A stretch of 64,000 nt of DNA from Candidatus Methanoperedens sp. (GCA_023249105.1 JAHFDG010000015.1:1-64000); one strand, 5' to 3'; shown: positions 14,601 to 32,654, counted from the first letter of the stretch. Numbers and translations: made by a program. Notes: generated by a model from the sequence alone, not told the origin.

Positions 14601-14957
14601 GACTTTTTGAATAATGAGGCAATACAACTTGGTCTTTCAGAATCAGAGAAAAGACAAATCGAAGATGATATATCAAGAAATAAAGGAGTTAAAACCGTTA
14701 ATATCGAAGCATACAGAAAGCAAGCATTTGCAGTGTTTAGGAAAGGTAAAATTACCCAGGACGAAAGAGGATTACTAGATGTATCAAGATTTAACTATGG
14801 TTTAAACAGAGAACTACAAAAACAAATTGAAAATGAAATTTTAGCGGCACTTTCAAAAGATAACATTATAGTAGAAGAAGAGAAATTTTGTCCTAATTGT
14901 GGAAAGATAATAATAAAAGGTACATTCTGCGGAGATTGCGGCAGAAAAGCTACATAG
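11640..14957 (+). CDS. Large multidomain protein: PQQ-like beta-propeller, multiple CARDB/Ig-like domains, DSVVQ motif, TerB-like helical repeats, C-terminal zinc ribbon
   Basis: N-terminal repeats of the GRVYFFEKDGTELWQ type. Several xNxGxxxAxxI CARDB-like units. GGDYFDGGG...DSIVQRT. Two KITxxERxxL helical repeats. C-terminal FCPNCG...CGDCG. Confidence 0.55.
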   Translation: MTENSPEIPAYDIYWKKKLKSLKDISYSRDGNYLLVGSNEGRVYFFEKDGTELWQQNLNDITCLGVSGDASRIITGNNSGSLCLISKEGRREWEKKVNGSINSLSISDDGKNICIGTDKGIIFDFNDSGNELWKHKIKGTLDGGICHSPDGKFIAVGSWDTVHLFSVEGKIIWKFKFNKKITNVSLAEKASLIAACTKGSIGFIGNEGNLISEKAIANGFKSASICDNRIYAISSNNVYIFNNRGEQQTFFEAPESLLKIYVNSKEFISAISENRIYMFSSLMKPEVNILTESLIFREKQPLKVEVLNNSPKDFELELELRSNGLTPGNFKSLVKVPANGKSNAEFLVAADKIGKCNIEFFIKNKNIKSNKNIIEVVPPKIELNISHHPKYEFNAEDDEITMIIDIENNGQGTAKKIGVVGDNNLFLPELKPEAKTSLTYKIKLPSGEHNLSKNIIYEDEFDNKFNIECSGRILVEKAPYVWGLKQPVPKITTGKTEIIKFDVKNIKKDVLNLIFNITSEKIEIKPDSKAVQLKPSESQEMEFSFMPRESGENIEFSIIIEYDGKIQKYENDIKVYAGPPHIIVKNHLPKDKYLLGEEIYETLELLNDGESAAKNIQIDGIPEKIPILEPKILKLVNRPLQSSEAKSYRSEKNRIKYEDDVGDYSIEFDSKAYTVQSPALRIKVPEINLQENIKKEVMFEITNVSNELMKGISVELSIPDDRTIIDKRAIAIETISPNTTIPAVFHMTANKEGIVDFSICAKHQGAIIAQQAGTFIVGSKTPALIIEADDGGMVQNEHSLLKLKITNTGEMEARDISIKIHCEIDKMFCKEVTPSNHSELKEIKPYESKVINLGFYPENAGRVSLIIRSFCKSIYGKDLPEKRNEVICTIRPQAQKAEKQIIVGGDYFDGGGTKIKDAVVQKCSFDQSGGNVEDSNIQKGISGQGSVDIRDSIVQRTSLGDNKKNIEKYRALCIQAFEDGKITMGERDFLNNEAIQLGLSESEKRQIEDDISRNKGVKTVNIEAYRKQAFAVFRKGKITQDERGLLDVSRFNYGLNRELQKQIENEILAALSKDNIIVEEEKFCPNCGKIIIKGTFCGDCGRKAT

Positions 14958-16260: not shown

Positions 16261-19200
16261 TCAGTCCAAGTATTTCTTGATCCTTTTAATAATTTCTTCG
16301 TTATTGAACATCGCTCTTGTCTTATCAAGCAATATGTTCCCAAATAATAGCGATGCACCTTCTTTACTTTTATCTTTGGTTTCTATTTGTATCAATTTTT
16401 GTGAAACTGCCCAGAGATCAGCAATAGGCGAAACATTGTAGTTCTGGATACTGCCTGTTATCTCCCGGTCCACAAGTTGAAGTTTGTTGAGTACATCTTT
16501 TTTGTGTTTATCTATGAATTCTTCGGGGTTGGTCATGTATAAGTTGATCATTTGATTATAATCTGCCATATTTATCGACACTTCTACTTTTCCGGACGCT
16601 TTAGAGCGCATGTTAATGAAATCCGAGATATTTTCTTCATTAGTCAGTGTGGTTTCCATTTCCTTGGTAATTTCCTCAGCCACAAAATAGAGATTATAAA
16701 TCTTTTCTTTTGAGGGATCAGAATCTAAATACCCTGGTGTAGTGGCTATAGTTTCAATGAGCCTTATGATCTCAATACAGATGCCCTTATAATATTCCGG
16801 GATGCACATATCGCATGAAGAAGATAGTTTTTTCATAGATTCATGCAATGATTTTTTGATATTATCCCCAATAGCTTTCAGTTCCTCATCAAGGTTTATT
16901 TCGGGCTTTAAGTAGATTTTCTTGTTCAGCTTTATATCGTTCACATCCAGAGACAGTACTTCAGTTTTATAATATTCCTTTTGAACCGATATGTCATGGC
17001 TGCCAAGCGATATGTCTGGGATCACCACATCTCCTTTCTCGTCGGTCATAAAGCTCATCTCGCCAAGTTTAACTTCAGCTCCAGAGAGTGGTCTTTCATT
17101 AGCAAATTCATACACTGAAATTTGCATTGTTGCTTTACCCCCGAGTTCGATGAGAATCCTATCATTTTTATTAACCTCTAATTCTCGTTTTTCTTCTTCG
17201 AACCCTTTAGAATTAATTCTCAGTTTGTACCATCCTTCTCTAACCTTTCCAAAAATCACCTTGCCGTCAATATCACTTACCCTTTCAATAAGCTCTCCGT
17301 CAGCGGATTCGAGAATTACTGTTGCTTTCCGGATTGGAGTTTTATTATACATGTTTTTTACTTCCAAAATCAAAGTGTAGGTATTTTCAATTTTTCTTGG
17401 TGGTTCTGGAACTGTAATCTCTTTTTTGCCAGGCTTTGATTTTGGCTTATCTACCTTGAGTGCAGTATCTACCCCCCGGGTATCTTTAGGTATGACTTTT
17501 TTGGGTTTGAAAAAGTGAAAAACCACAAGAAGAAAGACTACTAATACGACCAATAATATGACCAGAAAAGTTAGGGACTTATTTGAAGATGAGTCGTTCG
17601 AATAGTTCAGAGTATAAGTAGTTGGAATGCTGGGCGTAGAGGTTGATGTAATTTCATATCCACCTGAAAGAAGAGAACTTTCGCCGCTTATGGATTTTTC
17701 AATCAAAGGATAGAACCTGAGATTTGAGCCATCGTTTGCAACTTTAAATTTCAACCCGCCCATTAAATCGACAGTTCCAGAATTTAATAGGATTCTATTC
17801 TTATTAACTAAAACAACTGAGTCGCTATTAGAGCCTGTGACTTCGAATACTCCAAATCTGTCTCCGAGCCTAATATTACCAGCAGAATCAGAAGTCAGAA
17901 AAGTATATCTTAACTGCACCATATCTGAGGTTGCGCCCGCAAAAACACTATCTAAATAAGTGACCAGTATCGGCACAGATCCTTCATCGCCAAAATTAGC
18001 TTCGTATGTATATATTTGACCCTGTGCTAATACCTTATCATCCAGTTTTTTACCGTTTTTACTAAATACAAGCCATGCTTGCCGTGGAGATGCTTTGGCA
18101 TCGATTGATTGTGCTGTGATCGTATATCCGTATCCTATATCCCATGTTTCGCCGACTGTGAGCGATTTCTTTTCAGATGTTGACGCACCTTGTTCTAGCA
18201 GTATTTTTGCAAGTTTATTACTTTTTCCATTAATTGCAATGTATTTGTCTCCCTGCCAGCCAACTGCATTATAATAATTTTTGCCACCAACAGATATGCC
18301 CTTGGCTGATGTAACTTTATAGTTTACAGGAGCCGCTGAGGTTCGATAAGTAAGACTATTAGTTTCAATAAAATTATTGTTAGCATTAAATGAGCTAAGA
18401 GTAAGGGTCTCTGTGCTCTGGTCACTATCAAGATCGTACCATAACCCTGCAAAGTTATTAGCATTCCATGAGGCAGATCCCTTCGCCAGTTCACCTCTGA
18501 TTGTGTATTTATCCGATTCCTGTAATCTGATTACAGGAAAATATGTAAGGCGATCGCTATCAGCAACCATAAACTTAATATTACCCATCAAATCAACGCT
18601 CGCTCCTTTTAGAAGCTGTACTCCCACGTCATTTATCAATGCTAAATTATTATCATTTGCCGTAGAGACTTTGAATATTCCGTATTTATCACCTGACTGG
18701 ATTGTTAGGACGCTTTTTGAAACCAACCAGGAATATTTGAATTCAACAACATCACTTGTAGTACCAGAATTGATATTATTTATGTATGTTACAAAAATCG
18801 GTACGTTTGTTTCTCCTGCAAGGTATCCGCTGTAACTGTATATTTGCCCTTTAGCGATTACCTTATCATCCAGTTTTATGCCATCTTTACCGAGTACGAT
18901 CCATGCTTGCGGTGGAGATGCCTTAGCATCGATTGATTGTGCTGTAAGCGTGTAGCCGTCTCCCATGTCCCATGTTTGACCGACCCCAAGAACTTTGCTT
19001 TCCTGCGACTCTTGCTCTAAAACCAGCTTTGAGAGTTTATTTGCTTTACCATTAATAGCGATATACTTTTGTCCCTGCCATCCGATAGCGTAATAAGAAG
19101 TCTTTCCATCCACAGGCAGCCCTGTTGCAGAGTATACTCTAAATAGAATAGCCGTATCGAAAGTGGTGTATTGTAAGTTACCCTGCTCTATAAAGCGATT

Positions 19201-19413
19201 GTAATCATTTATTGAACCACGGACAACTAAAGACTCTGTACTTTTGTCAGCTTCGATATCGTACCAGAAACCTGCAAAGCTCTGGGCATTCCATGAAGCC
19301 TGTCCTGTGGCTTTAGAACCCCTGATTTCAATGCCTGCTGCTGCAATATTGGTTAAAAGAATTATTAATGCTGCGATTAAAATTAATTGTTTTATTTTAA
19401 GTGATTTAATCAT
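16261..19413 (-). CDS. S-layer-type protein with tandem DUF1608-like domains, TM helix and cytoplasmic CarbopepD_reg-like domains plus conserved C-module
   Basis: Signal peptide. Two ~280-aa repeats (SWNAxxFAGxWYD...AIGWQGxKYIAINGKxNKL...GxTWDxGxGYTxTAQSIDAKASP) are typical of Methanosarcina S-layer DUF1608. A TM segment LTFLVILLVVLVVFLLVVF follows. Cytoplasmic beta-sandwich repeats and a C-module with CDMCIPEYYKGIC and PIADLW complete the protein. Confidence 0.65.
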   Translation of the reverse strand: MIKSLKIKQLILIAALIILLTNIAAAGIEIRGSKATGQASWNAQSFAGFWYDIEADKSTESLVVRGSINDYNRFIEQGNLQYTTFDTAILFRVYSATGLPVDGKTSYYAIGWQGQKYIAINGKANKLSKLVLEQESQESKVLGVGQTWDMGDGYTLTAQSIDAKASPPQAWIVLGKDGIKLDDKVIAKGQIYSYSGYLAGETNVPIFVTYINNINSGTTSDVVEFKYSWLVSKSVLTIQSGDKYGIFKVSTANDNNLALINDVGVQLLKGASVDLMGNIKFMVADSDRLTYFPVIRLQESDKYTIRGELAKGSASWNANNFAGLWYDLDSDQSTETLTLSSFNANNNFIETNSLTYRTSAAPVNYKVTSAKGISVGGKNYYNAVGWQGDKYIAINGKSNKLAKILLEQGASTSEKKSLTVGETWDIGYGYTITAQSIDAKASPRQAWLVFSKNGKKLDDKVLAQGQIYTYEANFGDEGSVPILVTYLDSVFAGATSDMVQLRYTFLTSDSAGNIRLGDRFGVFEVTGSNSDSVVLVNKNRILLNSGTVDLMGGLKFKVANDGSNLRFYPLIEKSISGESSLLSGGYEITSTSTPSIPTTYTLNYSNDSSSNKSLTFLVILLVVLVVFLLVVFHFFKPKKVIPKDTRGVDTALKVDKPKSKPGKKEITVPEPPRKIENTYTLILEVKNMYNKTPIRKATVILESADGELIERVSDIDGKVIFGKVREGWYKLRINSKGFEEEKRELEVNKNDRILIELGGKATMQISVYEFANERPLSGAEVKLGEMSFMTDEKGDVVIPDISLGSHDISVQKEYYKTEVLSLDVNDIKLNKKIYLKPEINLDEELKAIGDNIKKSLHESMKKLSSSCDMCIPEYYKGICIEIIRLIETIATTPGYLDSDPSKEKIYNLYFVAEEITKEMETTLTNEENISDFINMRSKASGKVEVSINMADYNQMINLYMTNPEEFIDKHKKDVLNKLQLVDREITGSIQNYNVSPIADLWAVSQKLIQIETKDKSKEGASLLFGNILLDKTRAMFNNEEIIKRIKKYLD

Positions 19414-19429
19414 TTATACCTCTATGGCG

Positions 19430-21019
19430 TCAGAGAGGGTTTATTTTTAGCACTCTTATTATTTCTGGAGAAGTTAACATTTTTTTAGTAGTGTCAAGCA
19501 GTATGTTTGCAAGCAAGAGTGACGCCGCTTCCTCATATTCATTTTTGGCTCCTGTAATAATTTTTTGTGATATGCTCCATAGATTGGCTATAGGATTTAT
19601 GTTAAAATTTTGTAGGCATTTGGTTATTTCCGCATCAGTATCCTGAAGTTTCTTTAAAATCTTAGATTTATAAGTTATCAAGAATTCAACCGGGCTGCTC
19701 ATATATGATTGTATTGTAGCATCATAATCAGAGGGGTTAATAGCTATTCTTGGATTCGTCTTGATGCCCCTGCTCGCCATGTTAATAAATTCCGTGATGT
19801 TCTCGCTGTTTGTTAAAATAAGTTCCATTTCCTTGCAGATTTGACTAGTTACTTTGTACAGTGTATTTATTTTATCAGATGATTGATCTGCGTAAACATA
19901 AACAGAAGTGGAAGCTATTGTTTCATTCAGTTTAATCAACTCGTTGCATATACCTTTATAATACTCCGGAATACACATATCGCAGGCATAGGAGAGTTTC
20001 TTCATCGATTCGTTTATTGAATTCCTGAGCTTCTCTCCCTGAATTATATACTCATCACTCAATTTAATATCGGGTTTCAGAAATATCTTTATATCCTGAT
20101 TAATCTCTTTGATTTCCTGGGTGGTCGTTTCCAGTTTATAGGAATCTTTTGTAACAGTCAAGTCATATTTTCCAAACGAAATATCCTGAATGAACGCAGC
20201 CCCTTTTTCATCGGTTCTGACTTCTCTGTCTCCAAGATTTATTCTTGCATCAGCGATTGCACTCTGGTTCACACTATCTAAAACATGAATTGTCAGATTG
20301 GCTTTTCCTTTAAGTTCAATACTAATCCTGTCATTTTTATTTAATGCTATTTCACGGGATTCTTCTTCAAACCCTTTTGAATTAACAATTAATGTATACG
20401 CACCTTCCTTCACCTTCCCAAAAATAACTTTCCCATCAATATCGCTAATTCTTTCTAATTTTTCTGTATCATTCCGAAGAAAAACAATGGCTTTAGGTAA
20501 AGGTTCTTTGTTAAATTTGTTTTTAATTTCAACTATCAAGGTATAAGTAGGAACATCAGTTATTGTTTTCTGGGTCGGAGTTTCAGTCTCAGGTTCACCT
20601 TCGCCTTCTTCGACATACTCTTTCCTGCAATTTTCACATAACAATTCTCCATCAGAATAAACTAAATCATCCGTGATTTTACCGCAGTTTTGACATGCCA
20701 TTCTAATGGGGACCGTTGTACCTGCAGGTTCACCAGAAGTTGTTTTTTTGCAGTGTGGACACCGTTGCAACGTCTCCAATTTTTCTTTTCCACAATGTTC
20801 ACAAAAAACGATTTTGCCTTTCGGTCTGACATAGACGTATAACGGGACTATAAGTAAAGCTAAAATAAAAGTACCAATGCCCCAAAGAAAAATAGCCAAA
20901 ATAAAAGTACTAATGCCCCAGAGAGACCAGTTTTTGGCTCTTTTTTTTGCATCGCTGGCAATCCAGAATACGATTGCAATCAAAAAGAGAAATAATATCC
21001 AGCTACTGTCATTAGCCAT
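19430..21019 (-). CDS. Membrane protein: 2 TM, cytoplasmic zinc ribbons, 2 CarbopepD_reg-like domains, conserved C-module
   Basis: N-terminal hydrophobic helices. CEHCG...CPHCK...CQNCG...CENC. The C-terminal ~330 aa are paralogous to the C-terminus of 16261..19413 (ACDMCIPEYYKGIC, PIANLW). Confidence 0.6.
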   Translation of the reverse strand: MANDSSWILFLFLIAIVFWIASDAKKRAKNWSLWGISTFILAIFLWGIGTFILALLIVPLYVYVRPKGKIVFCEHCGKEKLETLQRCPHCKKTTSGEPAGTTVPIRMACQNCGKITDDLVYSDGELLCENCRKEYVEEGEGEPETETPTQKTITDVPTYTLIVEIKNKFNKEPLPKAIVFLRNDTEKLERISDIDGKVIFGKVKEGAYTLIVNSKGFEEESREIALNKNDRISIELKGKANLTIHVLDSVNQSAIADARINLGDREVRTDEKGAAFIQDISFGKYDLTVTKDSYKLETTTQEIKEINQDIKIFLKPDIKLSDEYIIQGEKLRNSINESMKKLSYACDMCIPEYYKGICNELIKLNETIASTSVYVYADQSSDKINTLYKVTSQICKEMELILTNSENITEFINMASRGIKTNPRIAINPSDYDATIQSYMSSPVEFLITYKSKILKKLQDTDAEITKCLQNFNINPIANLWSISQKIITGAKNEYEEAASLLLANILLDTTKKMLTSPEIIRVLKINPL

Positions 21020-21114
21020 CTTACATCCCTTTAACTTTTATCAAGATTACCTCTTTCTTATTTTAATTAATCGTAAATTTCAAATTAATAGCGCAATCAC
21101 CATTTAAGTCAATA

Positions 21115-23175
21115 TTAAAACATGCTGATCGCCAGGCGCGCTTTCACCTCTTCTTTATTATACATTTCCCTTACATGGTCAAGCAATTTATCGTCGATGA
21201 ATAGCATAACGCCCCGTTTCTTTGCATCTGCTTCATTCATACTGTTCTCCAGCAATTTTTGCGCCACCCTCCAGAGATCAGCCACAGGCTGTATAGTAAG
21301 AGTGCCGCTTAATTGCGTCAGTTCATTATCTATCTCATTGAGCTTGTTACCAACATCCCTGAAATGGTTCTTGTGATAATTCGCGGTGTCGCGTACAAGT
21401 TCGCTGAACTTTTCAGGTGAATAGTCAGATACAGTCAGATCATCAACAGGAGGCAGATTCTGGATTGAAAAGTAAAAGTCCACATTGCTTTTTTCCCTCA
21501 TGATTCTTGAAATTTCATCCGCTAAAAATTCTGTTGTGCTAAGAGTATATTTTATTATTTCGTCTGGACTTGTTTTTGCACCAAGAAATTCAACAGGTCT
21601 TTTTATTATTTTGTCTACTAATTGCGTGGGTTTTTCTCCTACCTTTTTAAAGAATAATGGAATGCACGTATCGTATGTAGAAACTTCTTTAAAACCAGTA
21701 TTGAGTTTCTCATTGATTTTACTGATCGAGTTGAGAAATTCCGGCTTTGGTTGATAGTTGAATCTGAGGTCAAGCGTCACAGCACATGTTCTGTTTTCAA
21801 TGATAGTTACCTGTTTTTCGACCGGATCGTACAGTGAGGGAATGCTTGTTTTAAGGCGGACAATATAATCTCCAATAGACAATTTCTGGTTTATTCTACC
21901 GTTGTCATCTGTAGCAAAATCCATCGCCTGAGAAGCGCCTTTTTTCATCAAGCTAACTGGGGTTCCAGCAAAGGGTTTACCAGTTGCTTGCTCAGAGATT
22001 GTTATATCAAGCGTACCTGCTTTTTTGAAAAGCTGGATTCTCTTTGTAGTTTCTGAACTGCTTAAGGGAATATTCTTTTGTTCAACGAATTCCCCGCCCG
22101 AACTGCGTATAGAAACGACATATTGTTTATTTTTGGAAATGGTAAACTTCGCAATCCCTGAAGCATCTGTAACACCAGGGCTCCCGTTTGCATCCACCAG
22201 AGAAGTAGTCTCTTTAACACTCACGTTGATTCCGCTGATAGGGTTACCAGCTTCGTCCACTACCTCTATCTGTACTGGCTGCCGTTTGATCAGGGATATT
22301 TTGATTCTTTCATCGTCGGAAGGGATGTTTACTTCTCTTGAAGTGGATTCATAATTCCCACCACCGTCAACTTCAATTTTGTAGGTTCCCTTAGGAAGTT
22401 CTAAGTGATATGTCCCGTCAAACTCAATGCGGGCAAGGTAAGGCATACCACTTTTATTAACCGCTCTGACTTTTGCATCTGTGATTCTTACAAATCCTGA
22501 TTCATCGAGTAAGTCAATTTGCAATTTATTGGTTAACGTTGCAATAGAAGGGCTCACGAGCCTTTGTTCAGATTCGTTCTCATCAGATGTTTTAATTCTT
22601 ATGAGACCTAGTTTATATAATCCCCAAAATACTCCAGCGAGACCTAATAAAAACAAAGCTAAATTAATATAAACATTGGAAAACAACTTAGATAGTATAC
22701 CCTGCGGAGGGGTTTCTGTAGGTGCGGTCGTAATTTCTGGAGTGGTAGCCGCTGGTGTTGTTGGTGCTGGAGTCGTGGGTGATGGGGTGGGTGCAGGTGT
22801 CGGAGTGGAAGTCGGAGCAGGGGGATTTTTATTGATGACTGTAATTTTAGTTGCTAAATTATCACTTATATTAGTTACCGTTACATCAAAACTTTTTCTT
22901 AATGTTAGATTTTTTAGGGATTCTGGATATAAATTTGAATTAGATATATTTAGCACTAATTTTCCATCATCCTTAATTGTTTCATTGAATGAAGACTCTG
23001 GAAAATCTAGTCTATAAGTAGCTCCTTTACTGAAATTTAGATAAGATAATGTTAAGTTATCTCCGTTTAGTTCGCCTGTGGGTTCCGTAGCAGCAGTGGT
23101 GGTAATCGAAAACGAAAACATCACCAAAAATACAAAAAATATCCTCAATCCGTTCATAGATGACCCCGTTATCAT
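21115..23175 (-). CDS. Envelope-spanning protein: signal peptide, extracellular domain, Pro/Thr linker, TM, 3 CarbopepD_reg-like domains, divergent C-module
   Basis: PPAPTSTPTPAPTPSPTTPAPTTPAATTPEITTAPTETPP linker and a TM helix LALFLLGLAGVFWGLY. The C-terminus has TYDTCIPLFFKKVG...PVADLWRVAQKL, homologous to the C-module of the two downstream genes. Confidence 0.6.
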   Translation of the reverse strand: MITGSSMNGLRIFFVFLVMFSFSITTTAATEPTGELNGDNLTLSYLNFSKGATYRLDFPESSFNETIKDDGKLVLNISNSNLYPESLKNLTLRKSFDVTVTNISDNLATKITVINKNPPAPTSTPTPAPTPSPTTPAPTTPAATTPEITTAPTETPPQGILSKLFSNVYINLALFLLGLAGVFWGLYKLGLIRIKTSDENESEQRLVSPSIATLTNKLQIDLLDESGFVRITDAKVRAVNKSGMPYLARIEFDGTYHLELPKGTYKIEVDGGGNYESTSREVNIPSDDERIKISLIKRQPVQIEVVDEAGNPISGINVSVKETTSLVDANGSPGVTDASGIAKFTISKNKQYVVSIRSSGGEFVEQKNIPLSSSETTKRIQLFKKAGTLDITISEQATGKPFAGTPVSLMKKGASQAMDFATDDNGRINQKLSIGDYIVRLKTSIPSLYDPVEKQVTIIENRTCAVTLDLRFNYQPKPEFLNSISKINEKLNTGFKEVSTYDTCIPLFFKKVGEKPTQLVDKIIKRPVEFLGAKTSPDEIIKYTLSTTEFLADEISRIMREKSNVDFYFSIQNLPPVDDLTVSDYSPEKFSELVRDTANYHKNHFRDVGNKLNEIDNELTQLSGTLTIQPVADLWRVAQKLLENSMNEADAKKRGVMLFIDDKLLDHVREMYNKEEVKARLAISMF

Positions 23176-24542
23176 TCCTCCTCCACCTCGTCCTCGTCTT
23201 CCTCCTCTTTGCAGAACTCCTTCACTACTTTCTCTGTATGGTCTATATAATTCTTTAAAATTCCTTCAATACGCACAATCTCTTCCACTGAAAGTTTCAC
23301 ATTATCCAGCTCCACATGACCGCCTTCTTCAGCCATCATGAGGATTTTCTTTAATGATTTGAAATCCTGCCAGGGCTTCTCCAGCATTTCTTTTAAACTG
23401 AAACCTCCAAGAAGCAGCAGCACATCGAAAGTATCTTTCTTACTTTTATTATACGCCAGGGAAACCATTCCCATCTTTCCGCAAATGTTTTCCTTCTTCC
23501 ACTTATTGAAAATACTGTTGATTTTATCCTCTGTGAAATCCCCTTTGTTCAAATGCTTCTCAGGTACGCTAACAATCAGGTACCCGATAACAGCAGTCTT
23601 GGGATCCATATTTACGAATGAATTTTTTGCTGCTTCATCAAGAGCCATTTCAATTTCAATGAAATTAATATCATTATCAACAGAAACACATGGAGTAAAA
23701 TGATACAGGTTCATTAAACTTGGAAACTTCACATAATCCTTGATATCGATCACGCCTTTCGAAAGTCTCCCCGGTGCGATCATCAAATCAATGGCTTTGA
23801 TTATTTTTTTATTTATATCAGGGAATTTAGGATCAATTCCCTCGGTTAATTCAATATTTTCAGCAATTTTTGAATTATCAACTATCAAGACCATATCTGC
23901 ATTTTGCTGAGAATTATCCCCGAATTTCAGAAGCCTTGAAAGCCCGCACACAGCATTGAATTGCCTCTGATCAGGTTCAGTCGAGTATGGAAGTATTGCC
24001 AGCGCCACATGGATATGGTTTTGAAGAGACACAGAGGTGCCGTGTTTCATCTGATGGATAATGTACGGAATACTGCCATTCCCTGTTCCGCCGCCCAGCG
24101 CAGCCATGTCCAGAACAACATCCCCTGCTGCCGTGCCGAGCGCTTCAATCGGTCTGCGGATTTTCGTCTCAAAATCTTTCCTGGCGTACTCCTCGCCTTC
24201 CTTATAAACATTGCCTGCGCCGCCGCCGCCAAATAAAAGTATATTCCTCCTTCCTATTTGCGCAATCAGGGCTTTTTCTTCCTCGGTTACAGCCTTTTTT
24301 TCAAGCTCTAATAAAGTATTACTTATATCAGTCCTGTTGCTGTTCATCAATAAAATTCTGTTATCTATCGCTTCATTTTTCATTTTCGTGAAATAGAGAG
24401 AAGCTACCTTTCCGGCACCTTCGCCTGATGCTAGGATGATCCACCGGGTAAATTGCCTTTCAGCGCTTTCTTCAATCGTTTCTGCTCTTGATGGCCGGAC
24501 AGCCTCAAGGTTCTCTTCTAACTGGCTCATAAAATACCTCAA
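23172..24542 (-). CDS. Divergent tubulin/FtsZ-superfamily GTPase with acidic C-terminal tail
   Basis: T1-like Gly loops IILASGEGAGK and LLFGGGGAGN. T4 signature LGGGTGNGS. LIVDNSKI corresponds to the DNEAL region of FtsZ/tubulin. T7-like GVIDIKD. The C-terminal EEEDEDEVEEE resembles a tubulin E-hook. Confidence 0.7.
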   Translation of the reverse strand: MRYFMSQLEENLEAVRPSRAETIEESAERQFTRWIILASGEGAGKVASLYFTKMKNEAIDNRILLMNSNRTDISNTLLELEKKAVTEEEKALIAQIGRRNILLFGGGGAGNVYKEGEEYARKDFETKIRRPIEALGTAAGDVVLDMAALGGGTGNGSIPYIIHQMKHGTSVSLQNHIHVALAILPYSTEPDQRQFNAVCGLSRLLKFGDNSQQNADMVLIVDNSKIAENIELTEGIDPKFPDINKKIIKAIDLMIAPGRLSKGVIDIKDYVKFPSLMNLYHFTPCVSVDNDINFIEIEMALDEAAKNSFVNMDPKTAVIGYLIVSVPEKHLNKGDFTEDKINSIFNKWKKENICGKMGMVSLAYNKSKKDTFDVLLLLGGFSLKEMLEKPWQDFKSLKKILMMAEEGGHVELDNVKLSVEEIVRIEGILKNYIDHTEKVVKEFCKEEEDEDEVEEE

Positions 24543-26680
24543 CTATTTTTCCATATCAATTTCGAATCATATTCTATATTTTTATAATAATCATATTCTT
24601 TTTTAAGCCCTTCAATAATCGCAATAATTTCCTCCACTGGCAGTGGCGCCGAGAGGTAACCTTCGGTCAGCTCTTGGATTTTTTCCTTCTTGCCGACCTC
24701 TATATTTTCTTCAAGAAGGGTCTCGATTTCCTTTCGCAGGGCATCGACATCATAAACCATGTAATCTTTTCGGTATTTGATGATTTTGAACTTCTCATTG
24801 TCCTTTGACCACAGATAGAGCAAACATGGACTATATTCAACTTTCAGTCTATCATACGTAGAGAGTATAAATTTTTTAGAATCAATTTCTTTCTGTATTA
24901 TGTCTTTGAATTTAACTAATGACTTTTGTAAAGATTCTTCCTTATCCTGGCATAGTTTTTCCCCGAGCGGTACTTCTTTTAATTTGAGTTCGATGGAAAG
25001 GTCGTTATCCAGTTCAATTTCTTTACTCTGACTTTTATGTCCTTTTTGTTTGATTAATAATTTATACGAACCTTTACTCAAACCCATCAAAATTGCATTT
25101 CCACCATTATCCGATACTTCTTTTTTAATAATTTTGTCGTCAAGCTTCAGGGAAACTTCGGCACCGTTTAACGGCAGGTTATCCTTATTTAATACTCTCA
25201 CAGAAACTTTATACAATTTTCTCGCAACCTGAAGAGAAGTAGTTAGAATTTTTTGGAAGCTGTCATATAAGGCATCCGGATGGAAATAACTGTATAATTC
25301 CATGAATTCTTCGGGATTTTTGACTTTAAGTTCAGCAACAGTAACTTTTCCTTTAGCATCAAGCTCACTTTTGATTTTATTTTCAATTTTACTGTAGATC
25401 CCAATTATCTTTGCTTTTAAGCCACTTTTTTCCATTATTGGAATCATTATTTTTAAGAGGCTTGAGAACTTTTCGGGATAAGCTTTCACTTTTGTTTCAT
25501 TCAGCAACTCGTCATATTCTTTTTCAACTGGTTGCCTTTCTGGATAGAAACGTTGTGGAAAATTAGCCTGCTTGATCGTGGTTTCATTATTTTTTAGAGT
25601 TGTGTATACCTCTTTAACTATTTCGTTTGCAGTTGGGATTATTTGGGGTTCTATTTGTTGCAGTTCTCCAATCTTTGAAGCGGATTCGAATCTTTTTGCA
25701 CGTTCTTCTAAAATCAATAACTTTTGGGTGTAATCATTATCGATTTTACCTTCAACTGTAGCAAGAATCTTCCCAATTGCAGAAAGTAAATCAGTCTTAT
25801 ATGCACTGAAATCCCCTCCAGCAATAGATTCAAGAGAATTCTTTATTCTTGTAAGGGATGCTATGCCTTTTTCGAAATCTCTGTAATTCTTGCTCTGAAT
25901 TATCTCCTCGATGCTGTTCATCTCCCGTTCTATGCTGGAGACGTCTTTGCCCAATTCCTTAGCCTTTTGCTTCCATTGTTTTGCTTCAGTTAAACAGGAT
26001 GATACGATATCTCTGAAGATGGAAGTAATATTATCGAGATAACGGGCATTTTCTATTATAGAGTTAGTTTCAAGGCTCTTATTGTTAATCTCAGCTTGAA
26101 GCCTTGATGCTGATGGATCTACGGTGTAACCAGCGCTCTTAAGGGTGTTTATATACGAAAGGTATGCCTTCGAAACTATATCTGTGAAATCTTTTATTTT
26201 GTTTTTCAAATGATTATCCATAGAATTTATATTTTTGGCGACATTATCAATGGTGTCGAGGTCGATTTTTTGGATGGATATTTCATTTAAGTTAGTGGTG
26301 TACGTTCCGTCAGTCTCAACAGCATTGATCCCTATCAAGGGTAATTCTTTATTCGCTAGAGTTTTTATTGCCTCATCAATATCATCTACCTGTAAACCAT
26401 AGGTTCTATTAATATCTCGTGCAACGGAGTGTAAATTCTTAAAATCGTAAGCGATTTTCTCAGTTTCCTGTGCTTTCAGAGTTAAACCAGGATCATGTCT
26501 TGAAGTTCTTAGTTGTTTAATATACTGATAAGCAAATGCTATGAAAAATAAAGGGATACCTATTATGGTGTAATAAAGAGCTGTCTCATAACCTTTAAAT
26601 AAAAATAATATGACGCTAACGCTAAACAATCCAACTATGATCAAAATTATTTTTAGATTATTTTTTGTCTCCATTTTCAT
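24539..26680 (-). CDS. Membrane protein (2 N-terminal TM) with long cytoplasmic coiled-coil and CarbopepD_reg-like beta-sandwich domain
   Basis: Hydrophobic helices at aa 10-55, then an extended heptad-rich region. KVSVRVLNKDNLPLNGAEVSLKLDDKIIKKEVSDNGGNAILMGLSKGSYKLLIKQKGH is a transthyretin-like fold motif. Confidence 0.55.
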   Translation of the reverse strand: MKMETKNNLKIILIIVGLFSVSVILFLFKGYETALYYTIIGIPLFFIAFAYQYIKQLRTSRHDPGLTLKAQETEKIAYDFKNLHSVARDINRTYGLQVDDIDEAIKTLANKELPLIGINAVETDGTYTTNLNEISIQKIDLDTIDNVAKNINSMDNHLKNKIKDFTDIVSKAYLSYINTLKSAGYTVDPSASRLQAEINNKSLETNSIIENARYLDNITSIFRDIVSSCLTEAKQWKQKAKELGKDVSSIEREMNSIEEIIQSKNYRDFEKGIASLTRIKNSLESIAGGDFSAYKTDLLSAIGKILATVEGKIDNDYTQKLLILEERAKRFESASKIGELQQIEPQIIPTANEIVKEVYTTLKNNETTIKQANFPQRFYPERQPVEKEYDELLNETKVKAYPEKFSSLLKIMIPIMEKSGLKAKIIGIYSKIENKIKSELDAKGKVTVAELKVKNPEEFMELYSYFHPDALYDSFQKILTTSLQVARKLYKVSVRVLNKDNLPLNGAEVSLKLDDKIIKKEVSDNGGNAILMGLSKGSYKLLIKQKGHKSQSKEIELDNDLSIELKLKEVPLGEKLCQDKEESLQKSLVKFKDIIQKEIDSKKFILSTYDRLKVEYSPCLLYLWSKDNEKFKIIKYRKDYMVYDVDALRKEIETLLEENIEVGKKEKIQELTEGYLSAPLPVEEIIAIIEGLKKEYDYYKNIEYDSKLIWKNS

Positions 26681-26692
26681 AGCTGTATAGCC

Positions 26693-27883
26693 TCATATCA
26701 GGAATTTGAACATGTTTAAGTCACCTTCAATATAAATTATGATTCCAATCAATATTGATATTACTACAGTTAATATTATTGCAATTGTTATCGGACTTGT
26801 AATATTTGCCTTGCTTGTATAAAGCCCGAAATATTCGGATTCTTTTTTCCATCTGTTAACATTGAAATATCCGATGATGAGACCTAATAAAATCATTGCT
26901 CCAGCAGGAACGAATACTCCAGTTCTATAATCTGACATGGTAGATTCGAATTGATCTGAACTGTTTTTTTCCCGTCCCTGGGCGGCTTTAAGTTCATTTG
27001 TCAGCAGGCTATCTCTCTTTGTTATGAATATTGTTATTAATTCGCTGTTTATAATATTCATGTCTTCATTTATCAATTTTAATTCATTTGTCGACTGATC
27101 TTTTATTGGTTTATCGTCTTTGACCTTGTCTTCATATTCTTTCATTGATTTTTTCAGTCCGTCCCGTGAAACCTTTACTTTACTGACAGAATCCTTAAAC
27201 TCAGTATTATCGGGATTATCGGTCAAATTCAATATTTTTTTATGTAAGTCATTACTTGCATCCAAAAATTCTCTAATATTTTTTATTAAATTATCTGCAG
27301 TCTGGGATGTATCAGTATGATATTTCAAACTCCGGGCGCTTAGATTCTTCAATGGTGCATCATATGTCCTGCCTGGGGAACCAACAGTTTTAGTAATGTA
27401 TCTTGACTGGACATATATGGTAATTGTATTGATCGTTGAATTTGAATTATATATCCCCTTCACTATAACAGAATAACTTTCAGCTTTAGAGTTCTCATTG
27501 AATTTATATTCTGCATAATACTCACTATTGTTACCCACAGTGCTTTCTCCGCCAAAAACAGACGAAATTAATTTTCTGAATCTATCTTTCAAATCTTCTG
27601 TAAAACTGTGTGACTCGATTTTTGCAGTATCGTCTCCTATTTTGATCTCACCATTTGTAGTAAATACTTTAGTCGAATTGTCAAAAATCCTGAATTCCAA
27701 AGTATTGCCAGCAGAGATATTTAATCTATTATCTGTAAAAGCAATTTTATCACCTAAAGTTACATAGTATTCAATATTGCCAGATGTCACATTTTTATCC
27801 GCAGCTTGTGCAGGGTTCAACATGCTGAATACTAAAATAAAGCTTAATAAACTGATTTTAGAAAATAACTGTTTCTTTTTCAA
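26693..27883 (-). CDS. Secreted protein anchored by two C-terminal TM helices
   Basis: Signal peptide LLSFILVFSMLNPAQA and two C-terminal hydrophobic helices. Confidence 0.5.
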   Translation of the reverse strand: MKKKQLFSKISLLSFILVFSMLNPAQAADKNVTSGNIEYYVTLGDKIAFTDNRLNISAGNTLEFRIFDNSTKVFTTNGEIKIGDDTAKIESHSFTEDLKDRFRKLISSVFGGESTVGNNSEYYAEYKFNENSKAESYSVIVKGIYNSNSTINTITIYVQSRYITKTVGSPGRTYDAPLKNLSARSLKYHTDTSQTADNLIKNIREFLDASNDLHKKILNLTDNPDNTEFKDSVSKVKVSRDGLKKSMKEYEDKVKDDKPIKDQSTNELKLINEDMNIINSELITIFITKRDSLLTNELKAAQGREKNSSDQFESTMSDYRTGVFVPAGAMILLGLIIGYFNVNRWKKESEYFGLYTSKANITSPITIAIILTVVISILIGIIIYIEGDLNMFKFLI

Positions 27884-27888
27884 TCAAA

Positions 27889-28269
27889 TCACCCTTTGAA
27901 TAAACCCCTACTTTCCTTGATATACAAAATAATGGTCGATATCCACAATCCCAGAATGATGCTGAGTCCCCCGCCAATTGCATATTTCTGGATGTTTTTA
28001 TCAGCATAACTTTTAAGTATGCTGGTTTTGTCATTCAGTTTTTTTGCATTTTCATTGGCTTCATTAATCTTGTCGTTTCTATCATTATATTGTTTTTTGA
28101 GTTGATCATAAGCAGAATCCAAATCCTTTGGAGATGAAGGACCAGTGGGCATCAATATTGATGATAACACATCAGGAAATAGAAGGTTCATGACGGCTGC
28201 CACGAGCAGTATGGTAGATATGACCAGAACCAGTTTTGCAATTGTCCTTTTCATTTCATTTGATGTCAA
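27889..28269 (-). CDS. Small 2-TM membrane protein with intervening coiled coil
   Basis: 126 aa. TM helices at aa 10-30 and 98-118. Confidence 0.45.
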   Translation of the reverse strand: MTSNEMKRTIAKLVLVISTILLVAAVMNLLFPDVLSSILMPTGPSSPKDLDSAYDQLKKQYNDRNDKINEANENAKKLNDKTSILKSYADKNIQKYAIGGGLSIILGLWISTIILYIKESRGLFKG

Positions 28270-28281
28270 TGTTCGGATCCT

Positions 28282-29583
28282 CTAAGCTTCGATATTTGCA
28301 AGATTTTTCGACTTCTCCTCATAGCTCTGCGCCAGGCGACTGATTTCATTTAATCTCTGGATTTTATCCTTTTCAAAAGTGAACAGGGTTGTAAGTGAAA
28401 CAAGGTTTCTTTTTGTTAAGGATACACCGAGATGGCACTCATTAAGTGTTGAATTTTTCACCATGAATTCTTCAATTCCCCTCGTATTTATTCTTATTTC
28501 GGATTTCTTGAGGTAATGAGGAGGCGCTCTTATTAGAGCGAGATTTTTTTCACATTCGTTTAAATTTATGTTAGCTAAAGACTGCTTTTTAGCAGCCAAT
28601 CTGGCTAGCATGAGGGTGTCAATTTTTTTATTTTTGTTTAATGGAATTATATAATTCAGAAGATCACAGGTTATTGAACAGGCCCTTCCAATCGTAGCAA
28701 AACCTGGTTCCCTTCCCTTGCCTTTATGGTCAAACGATAATGCCGTTACAACGTCGTTCATATCTATAACAGGAGGATTTAATTCTGGATATTGCTTTGG
28801 GTCAATTCTTTCCAAAATTAGCCCAGATATCAGATCGGCTATGCATGTCGCAATATAATCATTATAGCTCAGATACATACTTTCCATATTTGATTCAAAA
28901 GAAATGCGCTGGTTATCTACTATGATGAACCCGCTAACAACATCTTTTAATCGCATTATCCCGTAATTTGCATTCCATGCCTGTCTATCGCTGGATTCAT
29001 CTTCTGTTTGATTTGATTTGACTATATTTCTCCGTGTGGCAGGAAGGACACCAACAGCGATAATGTTAACTTTATTATTCGTATATTCTTTCAAAGCCTT
29101 GGCTATGATAGGGCTAATACCGCAACCTGTTCCACCACCCAGACCGAAAAATAAAAATGCGAAAGGAATATCGGATTTTTCATTAGTTTCTTCGGTTTCA
29201 GCATCAACAGCTTTTCTATGCGTCTTGCTTTTAAATCTTTCATCAAACATATCCAGAATGGACTGGTAACGCTGCTCCAGAACATCATTAGCACGTACCG
29301 GGTTCTTTCCAAACCCACCCACTACTTTTTCTTCAAATCCCTGCGTTTTTCCAGAAACTAGACCATGCGTTTGAGATATGCCATACCAGTTATTTCTATC
29401 CGGTATATTTTTTATATTATGAAGGTCTTTGGCTGTTGAATTGATTAAAATCGGGTCAGCTATAAGATTCATGTATTTGTACTTGAACAGCGAATCGACA
29501 ATCGCACCACCTGCCTGACCAGAGCCGATCATTAAATAAGCCATAAGGATACCACAAATCTCATTGATACCTGAAATTAACAA
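28282..29583 (-). CDS. Second divergent tubulin/FtsZ-superfamily GTPase
   Basis: T1 MIGSGQAGGAIV. T4 FGLGGGTGCGISP. IIVDNQRI (DNEAL-like). T7-like PPVIDMNDV. The true start is probably at MAYLMIGSG (about 29544) rather than the first in-frame Met. Confidence 0.7.
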   Translation of the reverse strand: MLISGINEICGILMAYLMIGSGQAGGAIVDSLFKYKYMNLIADPILINSTAKDLHNIKNIPDRNNWYGISQTHGLVSGKTQGFEEKVVGGFGKNPVRANDVLEQRYQSILDMFDERFKSKTHRKAVDAETEETNEKSDIPFAFLFFGLGGGTGCGISPIIAKALKEYTNNKVNIIAVGVLPATRRNIVKSNQTEDESSDRQAWNANYGIMRLKDVVSGFIIVDNQRISFESNMESMYLSYNDYIATCIADLISGLILERIDPKQYPELNPPVIDMNDVVTALSFDHKGKGREPGFATIGRACSITCDLLNYIIPLNKNKKIDTLMLARLAAKKQSLANINLNECEKNLALIRAPPHYLKKSEIRINTRGIEEFMVKNSTLNECHLGVSLTKRNLVSLTTLFTFEKDKIQRLNEISRLAQSYEEKSKNLANIEA

Positions 29584-29640
29584 TAGTAATCTATTTATAT
29601 CTTTTCATTGATTGATGTATCGGGTATGCATGTGCGACAG
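29546..29640. promoter_or_regulatory. Divergent AT-rich promoter region between the tubulin-like cluster (minus) and the 29612 gene (plus); TATA-like ATTTATAT
   Basis: Short AT-rich intergenic stretch with a TATA-like octamer near 29565. Confidence 0.3.
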
Positions 29641-30607
29641 GTATCATAAGACATTATTAAGTCTATTATTAGCATTAATTAGCTTGACAATTCTTGCAAA
29701 TGGGGCAACGGATTGCAGTTTGGACACAAAAGAATATGTCAAAAAAGTTAACGAGCTCAATTATCCAGAAATGTATGGCGATTACCCTGAACTCAAAACT
29801 ATTCAGAGCCAAACTGTTTCATCGTTGCAAGGGCGACCTTGTTTAGATAAAGAAACAAAAAATTACGTAGATATAATTGTAAAAATTATTAACACATACA
29901 ACGAACTGTATTCGTTATCTGAATCCAATATTCCAGAAAATCATGAAAGTGCTATAACTAAAGCGGAATTAATCAAGCCAGATATTGAAAGTTTGGAGAT
30001 TTATAAAGAATCGAGAGAAAAATATTATCCCTTACTAATAAAAATTTCTCTAAGAAAGTTTTATAAAAATGAGGCAGAATATTTTGAAAATAGAGTAAAA
30101 AATGAGCGAAATACAAACAACAAAATCAAATTTAGCTTAAATGAAGCAAGGGCATATAAAAATATAGGGGACCCTAAATATGCAGAAATAAGTTATCGTG
30201 CTGAAGCAGAAAAAGCAGCGTATGATTACGACATCAATCTAATTAAAGAAGCAATTCAAAATTCCAATGATTTTTTAAATTATGCAGATAGCAACGTTAA
30301 AGGATTCTTTACTTCTATCGAATTGTTCGGGAAGGGGTTCAAACTGGAAGAAAGCATTATCTATGCAAACAAATTATCCATTCATCACGAAGAAGATCAA
30401 CTCAAGAATCTGGGAGACGAGCTAACAGGGAAAATTCAAATAATAAAAAAGGAAGCTGCTGCTTCAATAATTAAATATATATTAATTATAAGTGTAATTT
30501 ATTTAATAGTTTCATTATATTTTTCCGGGTCAATAACGCGATGGAAAAAAGAAATAGATAATGTTGATTTAGGGAATGATTTGTTGGAGGGATTAACGCT
30601 TGAATAA
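29612..30607 (+). CDS. Secreted protein with C-terminal TM anchor
   Basis: Signal peptide LLSLLLALISLTILANG and a C-terminal hydrophobic helix. The true start is likely a few codons downstream of 29612. Confidence 0.45.
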   Translation: MMYRVCMCDRYHKTLLSLLLALISLTILANGATDCSLDTKEYVKKVNELNYPEMYGDYPELKTIQSQTVSSLQGRPCLDKETKNYVDIIVKIINTYNELYSLSESNIPENHESAITKAELIKPDIESLEIYKESREKYYPLLIKISLRKFYKNEAEYFENRVKNERNTNNKIKFSLNEARAYKNIGDPKYAEISYRAEAEKAAYDYDINLIKEAIQNSNDFLNYADSNVKGFFTSIELFGKGFKLEESIIYANKLSIHHEEDQLKNLGDELTGKIQIIKKEAAASIIKYILIISVIYLIVSLYFSGSITRWKKEIDNVDLGNDLLEGLTLE

Positions 30608-32654
30608 AATAAATAATTACCGGCAACTTATAATATTATTCTTTTTTAGTATACTTTTTATATCTCCGTCATGTGCAGCGCCTGTTTTAAGACTTAGTAA
30701 TGATCAAACTGTAAATAAAAATTTTGATAACCGTTTTGGTCCGGATTCTGCATATTCCGATTCCAGAACATTTTATATTTACAATGACGGCAATACTTCT
30801 ATGACCATTTCTAGTGTAACTGTTGATGGCCCAGGATACGGGATTACTATGAGTATTTATTCCTCCCCAAATTCGATTTCGGCAGGAGGTTCTGGCGCAA
30901 TAACAGTTTCATTTAACGTTCCGTCTAGCGTTTCTACAGGAACATATACCGGGGTTATTAATGTAAATACGGTGTCAGGTGGGAGTGGAACAATGAAACT
31001 AGTCTTAGTTGTTACTACAAAAATACCTGCTGAACTAGGTAGTATTGGAAGTCGCTCTGTTACAATTAAATTTGATAAACCAAAAGGATCTGTACCCAGT
31101 TTTCAAGGTAACGAAAGCATTACATTAAGAAACATTGGCGATTCGATATTATACATTGATAGTATATATGTATCTAATCCGAATAGTGACATAACACTTT
31201 CTATTTCAGGTTATCAGACACCGATTTCTCCAAAAGATAGTACAATGGCGACTCTTGTAATCACAGCCCAACCCAGTGCGCGCGAGGGAACGTTTAATGG
31301 ACAAATTACAGTTACTACCTCAAAGGAGGGTAGATATAGTGGAAAATATGGCACCCCAAAAACCGATAATGTGGAGGTTAGAGTAACTATTGAACATGGA
31401 ATAAACATGGAAATAACAAAATCATCAATAAATTTTGGAGATACGGAGTTATTAAAACAAAAAGAAGACTATATTGATATTAGCGAGACACTTGGATACA
31501 AGTCAATAAAAGACATTAAAATAACAAAATCAGGCCCTAACAAATGGCTCAGCGTTAGTCCTAATAGTCTGAGTAGCATAAATGCCTTCGGTTCAGAGAG
31601 AATTTCTGCTAAGCTACTTTATGAAGGGGATGCAGAACCTTATATAAATCATGAATGGATGTACACTATTTCTACTATTAACGCGGGTTCAAAAAGCTTT
31701 AAAGTAAGTTCAAAAATGATATTTGACCCCATTGTTCCTGAAAAAATCTGTAGTTCAAAATATAAGAGCATTGATGATACTAAAGAAATTGCTGAAAAGA
31801 TGTGCAGTGCATTGGGGTATGGTATTAATACTGCTGCAAAAACTTTTAAAATTAGTGAATTAATTTTATTATTTTCCATTGGGAGTTCTACTATAGATTT
31901 GTTAGATTCCTATATAATAGCTGAAGATTCTATAAATAAAGAGGAGCATGATACTGCCTATGAAAATCTTATTAAAGGGGTTGTATCAGCAAAAATAATT
32001 AATACCTATGCTGAAAAAATTTCTGATTATAACGTAAAACTTGATGTAAACTTTGTGAACGAGAAATCCAGTAATCTAATGAACAGCCTCTTGGAAAAAG
32101 AAACGAACTATTATGAATCGAAAAAAGATTCTGATTCACTTGATTCACTTCAATCAATGATTGCTTATGAAAGATTAAGCGAAATGTGGGGAGTTCTTGG
32201 TAATGACGAAAAACAAGTACATTATGATACTCTGGCAAAAGAAAAGTTTAAAGAACATAATAATTATGTTGATTCTGCAAAAGATAGCAGGCTTGAGGCA
32301 GAAAATCTGCTTAAAGAAACACAAAATAATTATCTTTCAAAATGGGGGGGGATGTATCTTTTGATTAATCCTTTTTATTACAGTACAGTCTCTCGCGAGC
32401 ATAATTCTATTGTTTCAAAATACGAGGAAGCAACTCAAAATTATGGGTTGGCAGGAGAAAAAGCAATTGCTGATAAAACAAAAGAACGTCTAAATGATAT
32501 AGAATCATTATTTAATAAAATCTATTCAATATTTTTTGTATTTACTGGGTTCTATACATTAGCATTTCTTGGAGTTTTATCACGAAGTACAAAGGCTATG
32601 ACGGCTTTTGTCAGAGATACTTCAGAAACCCGTATGGGGGATGATTTTCTGTGA
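30600..32654 (+). CDS. Secreted protein with CARDB/Ig-like repeats and helical C-terminal region, C-terminal TM
   Basis: Signal peptide. YIYNDGNTSMTISSVTVDG and ITLRNIGDSILYIDSIYVSN are CARDB-like. C-terminal hydrophobic helix. Confidence 0.5.
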   Translation: MNKINNYRQLIILFFFSILFISPSCAAPVLRLSNDQTVNKNFDNRFGPDSAYSDSRTFYIYNDGNTSMTISSVTVDGPGYGITMSIYSSPNSISAGGSGAITVSFNVPSSVSTGTYTGVINVNTVSGGSGTMKLVLVVTTKIPAELGSIGSRSVTIKFDKPKGSVPSFQGNESITLRNIGDSILYIDSIYVSNPNSDITLSISGYQTPISPKDSTMATLVITAQPSAREGTFNGQITVTTSKEGRYSGKYGTPKTDNVEVRVTIEHGINMEITKSSINFGDTELLKQKEDYIDISETLGYKSIKDIKITKSGPNKWLSVSPNSLSSINAFGSERISAKLLYEGDAEPYINHEWMYTISTINAGSKSFKVSSKMIFDPIVPEKICSSKYKSIDDTKEIAEKMCSALGYGINTAAKTFKISELILLFSIGSSTIDLLDSYIIAEDSINKEEHDTAYENLIKGVVSAKIINTYAEKISDYNVKLDVNFVNEKSSNLMNSLLEKETNYYESKKDSDSLDSLQSMIAYERLSEMWGVLGNDEKQVHYDTLAKEKFKEHNNYVDSAKDSRLEAENLLKETQNNYLSKWGGMYLLINPFYYSTVSREHNSIVSKYEEATQNYGLAGEKAIADKTKERLNDIESLFNKIYSIFFVFTGFYTLAFLGVLSRSTKAMTAFVRDTSETRMGDDFL

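Follow-up and report, generated by a model that had tools for sequence, protein, structure and literature searches.

The window, a 64,000-nucleotide stretch of DNA from Candidatus Methanoperedens sp., carries at 16261-29583 a run of eight closely packed minus-strand ORFs, all recovered where the original prediction had placed them (Table 1). The genes of GTPase A and Cmod-1 overlap by 4 bp and the intergenic gaps in the rest of the run are 5-16 nt, except for 95 nt ahead of the Cmod-2 gene. Homologues place the start of B at M14 (29544; 420 aa) and that of A at M5 (24530; 452 aa), so that another supposed 4-bp overlap, between CC4 and A, turns into an 8-nt gap. The limits first given to the cluster were too narrow: the divergent genes U1 and U2 (29612-32654) are part of the module, and a beta-propeller gene is probably a member as well. 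The topologies first proposed agree with a hydropathy scan for six of the seven membrane proteins; the scan missed the N-terminal signal peptide of S3, a signal-like segment read from the translation. Overall, the observation of a gene cluster was confirmed, while its interpretation was supported in part only.

Table 1. Genes of the two-GTPase module in the window
Name	Position	Strand	Description
GTPase B	28282..29544	-	CetZ-like tubulin/FtsZ-superfamily protein, 420 aa; mechanical ORF reaches 29583
S2	27889..28269	-	Small 2-TM membrane protein, 126 aa
S3	26693..27883	-	Secreted, 396 aa, two C-terminal TM segments
CC4	24539..26680	-	713 aa; N-terminal 2-TM hairpin, then long cytoplasmic region
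GTPase A	23172..24530	-	CetZ-like tubulin/FtsZ-superfamily protein, 452 aa; mechanical ORF reaches 24542
Cmod-1	21115..23175	-	686 aa; signal peptide, ectodomain, Pro/Thr-rich linker, one TM, cytoplasmic CarboxypepD_reg domains, C-module
Cmod-2	19430..21019	-	529 aa; N-terminal TM segments, two zinc ribbons, two CarboxypepD_reg domains, C-module
Cmod-3	16261..19413	-	1050 aa; signal peptide, two DUF1608 S-layer domains, one TM, two CarboxypepD_reg, C-module
U1	29612..30607	+	331 aa; secreted, ectodomain, C-terminal TM anchor; divergent from B
U2	30600..32654	+	684 aa; signal peptide, Ig-like domains, U1-like domain, C-terminal TM anchor
PQQ-like beta-propeller + CARDB surface protein	11640..14957	+	1105 aa; probable peripheral module component

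Two divergent GTPases of the tubulin/FtsZ superfamily

Both GTPases score above the Pfam PF00091 (Tubulin) gathering score of 33 bits (B, 50.5 bits, E 3.9e-13; A, 44.9 bits, E 2.1e-11) and, as anticipated, profile searches place them in the tubulin superfamily and not in another P-loop family. The profiles of both families match CetZ, FtsZ and tubulin structures, CetZ (4b46, 4b45, 3zid) giving the top profile and structural matches for A and B (3zid for the B family profile, E 1.3e-14). A and B also align with each other over both domains (hhalign 98.8%, 290 columns), and their sequences point to a pair of paralogous CetZ-like GTPases. The AF2 model of A (pLDDT 85.4, pTM 0.87) retrieves FtsZ (5e-19) and CetZ (2e-18) with Foldseek and superimposes on CetZ1 4b46 with a TM of 0.85 over 377 columns, with H7, the T7 loop and H8 positioned as expected. 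A is thus predicted to adopt a complete two-domain tubulin fold, nearest to CetZ and FtsZ, ending in a long C-terminal helix and an acidic tail. This tail, first described as E-hook-like, is present in the A of the window but is restricted to close relatives.

The nucleotide-binding loops T1 and T4 and the T7 aspartates are conserved as proposed; the T7-like loop, previously read as NxDxxD, is V-I-D-x-x-D in A and B alike. T4 is GGGTGNG in A and GGGTGCG in B, while T1 and T3 differ between the paralogues (SGEGAG/GAGN in A versus GxGQAGG/GFGKNP in B). Among 20 A orthologues, S39-G40-E41-G42, GGGTGNGS, D266 and D269 are invariant; among 22 B orthologues, T1 GxGQAGG, T4 GGGTGCG and T7 IDxxD are kept, with D274 nearly invariant and D277 invariant. 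Identity within these sets is about 40% (39% between B and OE_RS12060 of Halobacterium pHS2), and the acidic T7 residues are kept in the orthologues of both GTPases.

Like CetZ, A and B have a two-domain fold with no recognisable FtsZ_C or Tubulin_C Pfam domain, and B has a glutamine in its T1 GxGQAGG; CetZ proteins, too, are archaeal, occur as several paralogues and have a link to the cell surface. Nonetheless, identity to CetZ structures is only 18-19%, the profile scores (54-57 bits) are barely over those of FtsZ, and the gene context differs since CetZ genes are not within such a membrane-protein module. Published trees put such proteins outside canonical CetZ, and phylogenomic surveys already list them as 'non-canonical TSF', 'CetZ-like' or 'Halo.Tub' without an assigned function, one survey mentioning quasi-tandem copies with coiled-coil neighbours. 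The GTPases themselves match these catalogued groups and are not wholly undescribed. Our literature search found no paper describing the two-tubulin envelope module.

Four other identities were rejected. A and B share T4 and T7 chemistry with FtsZ but score 39-44 bits against TIGR00065 (cut-off 295) and lack FtsZ_C; they lack the Tubulin_C domain of true tubulins, with 12-16% identity to them; and TubZ and RepX score below CetZ and FtsZ. The kinship to FtsZl1 operons raised in the original prediction did not hold either. FtsZl1 (Makarova and Koonin 2010) is also a divergent tubulin-superfamily GTPase with a conserved multi-gene context, a predicted action on membranes and some occurrence in Halobacteria. 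It is a protein of about 1000 aa with an FtsZ-like N-domain, a long coiled coil and an alpha-helical C-domain, without recognisable T6-H7 or C-terminal domain, encoded beside vWA, a distinct GTPase and OmpA-family proteins (PMC2875224). In contrast, A and B have 420-452 aa, a predicted complete fold with T7 and none of these neighbours. Its size (about 1057 aa) and long internal coiled coil would liken the Borg 'tubulin-like' subfam2487 to FtsZl1; A and B are unlike it.

As in the paired tubulins (alpha/beta-tubulin, BtubA/B, Asgard AtubA/B), A and B are two co-encoded, strongly diverged paralogues always found together, and by analogy this constant pairing suggests that they might form a heteropolymer. 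Tubulin structures match the A model at a TM of ~0.65, the T3 of A (GAGN) is presumably tubulin-like in appearance, and the A of the window has its acidic, non-conserved C-terminal tail. Unlike paired tubulins, A and B are without Tubulin_C, both keep the acidic T7, and Halobacteria loci contain a third GTPase paralogue, named T3.

Membrane and surface proteins and their shared C-module

CC4 has TM segments at 9-27 and 33-51 by hydropathy scan. Its residues 1-480 form a core common to all lineages, with a cytoplasmic region of ~420 residues taken to be helical, followed by a CarboxypepD_reg-like domain and a C-terminal extension. This domain, announced as transthyretin-like, falls narrowly under the Pfam threshold (30.8 versus 32.3 bits) but is 39% identical to the corresponding domain of Cmod-2. 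The CC4 gene (E 2e-25 for the protein against Halobacterium OE_RS12045) is invariably directly upstream of A; in minimal Hydrothermarchaeota loci its immediate neighbours on the two sides are B and A, with overlaps of 4 bp, and the three genes are translationally coupled there. S2 (TMs 6-24 and 97-115 by hydropathy scan; weak PDGLE match slightly under threshold) occupies one constant position in the loci of Halobacteria and Methanoperedens; the minimal Hydrothermarchaeota version lacks it. The S3 family (TMs 322-340 and 361-379 in the same scan) occupies the same position in 29 loci.

U1, which more probably starts at the in-frame Met of position 29630, is homologous to Halobacterium OE_RS12030 and lies beside the cluster in 42 loci. 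It is related to U2 (hhalign probability 98.9%), which matches Halobacterium OE_RS12025 (E 5e-44), shows weak DUF1573/HYDIN Ig-like matches and is present in 41 loci. The 1105-aa protein has PF13360 and CARDB matches. In at least 22 Halobacteria loci a beta-propeller protein is encoded after U2, and in Hydrothermarchaeota the C-module protein itself carries a fused beta-propeller. In BE2012, the closest Methanoperedens relative, the gene directly adjoins the last Cmod gene.

Cmod-1, Cmod-2 and Cmod-3 have a common C-terminal helical module, which proved to be a real and rare domain, found in 93 of 1.84 billion representative proteins and always at the extreme C-terminus. The motif proposed for it, CDMCIPEYYKGIC, is valid only in the 529- and 1050-aa paralogues; conserved family-wide are D-x-x-I-P-x-Y-Y, N (100%), P (95%), W, LLD and R, and its cysteines are not conserved across the family. 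Cmod-1 matches PF13620 (63 bits, two stretches) and has its TM at 164-182. The S-layer exterior expected of Cmod-3 is present (PF07752, 355 bits; TIGR01567, 370 bits). Its C-module stands behind a signal peptide, the ectodomain and a single TM (614-632) followed by five K/R, and is therefore cytoplasmic, as predicted. In Micrarchaeota, where the C-module is preceded by an N-terminal TM only, its side of the membrane is ambiguous. The C-module model (pLDDT 78), built from only four sequences, matches generic helical bundles only, which makes filament binding by this module a guess.

Coupling to the S-layer, by contrast, does not stand as a property of the system. The Cmod-3 gene adjoins an IS3 element and is absent from BE2012, which has orthologues of Cmod-1 and Cmod-2. 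Cmod-3 is a strain-specific chimera: the portion on the cytoplasmic side is a copy of that of Cmod-2, with 51% identity to residues 148-525 of the latter. Cmod ectodomains differ by lineage (S-layer domains, mucin-like stalk, beta-propeller or none) while the cytoplasmic unit is constant; the S-layer fusion, the acidic tail of A and the C-module cysteines are lineage-specific features.

Distribution and probable mobility of the module

Synteny of the core set (B, CC4, A, C-module protein, U1, U2) extends over more than 50 loci of Halobacteria, Methanoperedens, Hydrothermarchaeota, Micrarchaeota and unclassified archaea. Conservation of the neighbourhood in related genomes had been proposed as a check; cross-phylum synteny is established here alongside superfamily membership, motif conservation and topology. 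Halobacteria copies are often on megaplasmids, such as Halobacterium salinarum pHS2. Since its distribution is patchy and its location often plasmidic, the module is dispensable, which fits an accessory or mobile-element function, and it appears to be exchanged horizontally. In ANME-2 and Altiarchaeales, A-type GTPases are also encoded on their own in housekeeping contexts; the partners are thus not strictly required by A. In Halobacterium NRC-1, VNG6260G ('cetZ5') is expressed and growth-phase regulated (PMC7439475), which is relevant only if this gene belongs to the cluster.

Such a distribution might suggest a TubZ-like (type III) segregation of the carrier plasmid or mobile element, with membrane attachment. 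As in TubZ/TubR/tubC systems, divergent tubulin-superfamily GTPases are plasmid-borne (in Halobacterium, Natrinema and Halobaculum), and weaker PDB matches include TubZ and RepX. We nevertheless hold this to be very unlikely: TubZ scores worse than CetZ and FtsZ, neither a TubR-like or other DNA-binding adaptor nor a centromere was found in the module, the conserved partners include six or more membrane or surface proteins, and the carriers are large (Halobaculum and Natrinema PLSDB plasmids of 337-881 kb, a 1.9-Mb contig for Hydrothermarchaeota locus L028, other large contigs for several further loci).

The least credible explanation sees in the locus a leftover of a virus or defence island, or cargo carried by one, its tubulins being used as in jumbo-phage PhuZ or Borg tubulin-like genes. 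Mobile DNA is indeed close by, with the IS3 within the window, an RRXRR gene inserted in BE2012 and ISH elements near the Halobacterium locus, and Methanoperedens Borgs do carry a tubulin-like gene. That Borg protein (~1057 aa, coiled coil) is nonetheless of a different type, and tandem repeats, reported as pervasive in Borgs and virtually absent from their hosts (PMC9879509), are almost absent from the window. The defence and phage libraries gave no match for any module component (PADLOC, none; PHROG, none meaningful), no phage record holds an A homologue, and Hydrothermarchaeota copies are flanked by ordinary-looking ORFs, with no IS or viral genes noted.

A putative envelope-coupled filament

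On balance, we favour the view that the locus is an envelope-spanning accessory module built around A and B, in which a membrane-tethered filament would be linked to surface proteins. This is the most economical reading; polymerisation, the binding partners among the parts, physical coupling and cellular output are its inferred elements. First, A and B may bind GTP and polymerise head-to-tail, either separately or jointly, with the filaments lying against the inner side of the membrane; this is proposed because the T1/T4 nucleotide loops are intact, the predicted two-domain fold is complete and the two acidic T7 residues, through which one subunit completes the active site of the following one, are present. 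CC4, encoded between B and A, would tether or space the filament at the membrane. The Cmod proteins could act as trans-membrane linkers, their CarboxypepD_reg beta-sandwich and helical C-module docking on the filament or on CC4, and their variable ectodomains would engage the envelope jointly with the anchored S3, U1, U2 and beta-propeller/CARDB proteins. The output may be to position, move or cluster surface-protein complexes, or to shape the envelope locally.

It is also conceivable, but distinctly unlikely, that the GTPases make no cytomotive filament and are GTP-regulated monomer or dimer factors for export, folding or clustering of surface complexes. Surface proteins (S3, U1, U2, Cmod ectodomains, beta-propeller) do take up most of the coding capacity, and some tubulin-superfamily members, such as gamma-tubulin, are chiefly nucleators or scaffolds. 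However, T7 acidic residues work only in trans at the longitudinal interface; their strict conservation in A and B across phyla is hard to account for without head-to-tail assembly, and the modelled complete fold of A also argues for it.

With the same filament and anchors but another output, the module might remodel membranes, its filaments constricting or pushing the membrane to give vesicles, protrusions, cell-cell bridges or fusion sites, while surface proteins identify a partner or label the site. Among tubulin-superfamily systems, FtsZ remodels membranes and FtsZl1 is proposed to do so (PMC2875224), many components are membrane-embedded or surface-anchored, and the location on haloarchaeal megaplasmids was also counted in its favour. 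We regard this as unlikely, as Pfam/NCBIfam searches of the locus found no ESCRT, dynamin, vWA, OmpA or fusogen-like components and the module shows no link to DNA transfer.

The proposed envelope-coupled filament would follow the principle of FtsZ and its membrane anchors (SepF in archaea, FtsA/ZipA in bacteria), a GTP-dependent filament on dedicated anchors organising envelope machinery, or that of MreB with RodZ. It differs from the former in that the module is without SepF, the proposed anchors CC4 and Cmod match no Pfam/NCBIfam model of known anchors, and a dispensable, laterally mobile module is not a core division system. With the MreB-RodZ elongasome and integrin-type linkers it would share a bitopic membrane protein with its cytoplasmic domain on a filament and its outer domain on the wall or matrix, a functional analogy drawn from topology and gene context, with no homology. 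Altogether, the set of two GTPases, membrane adaptor and surface proteins is a real, uncharacterised module that is conserved in several archaeal phyla.

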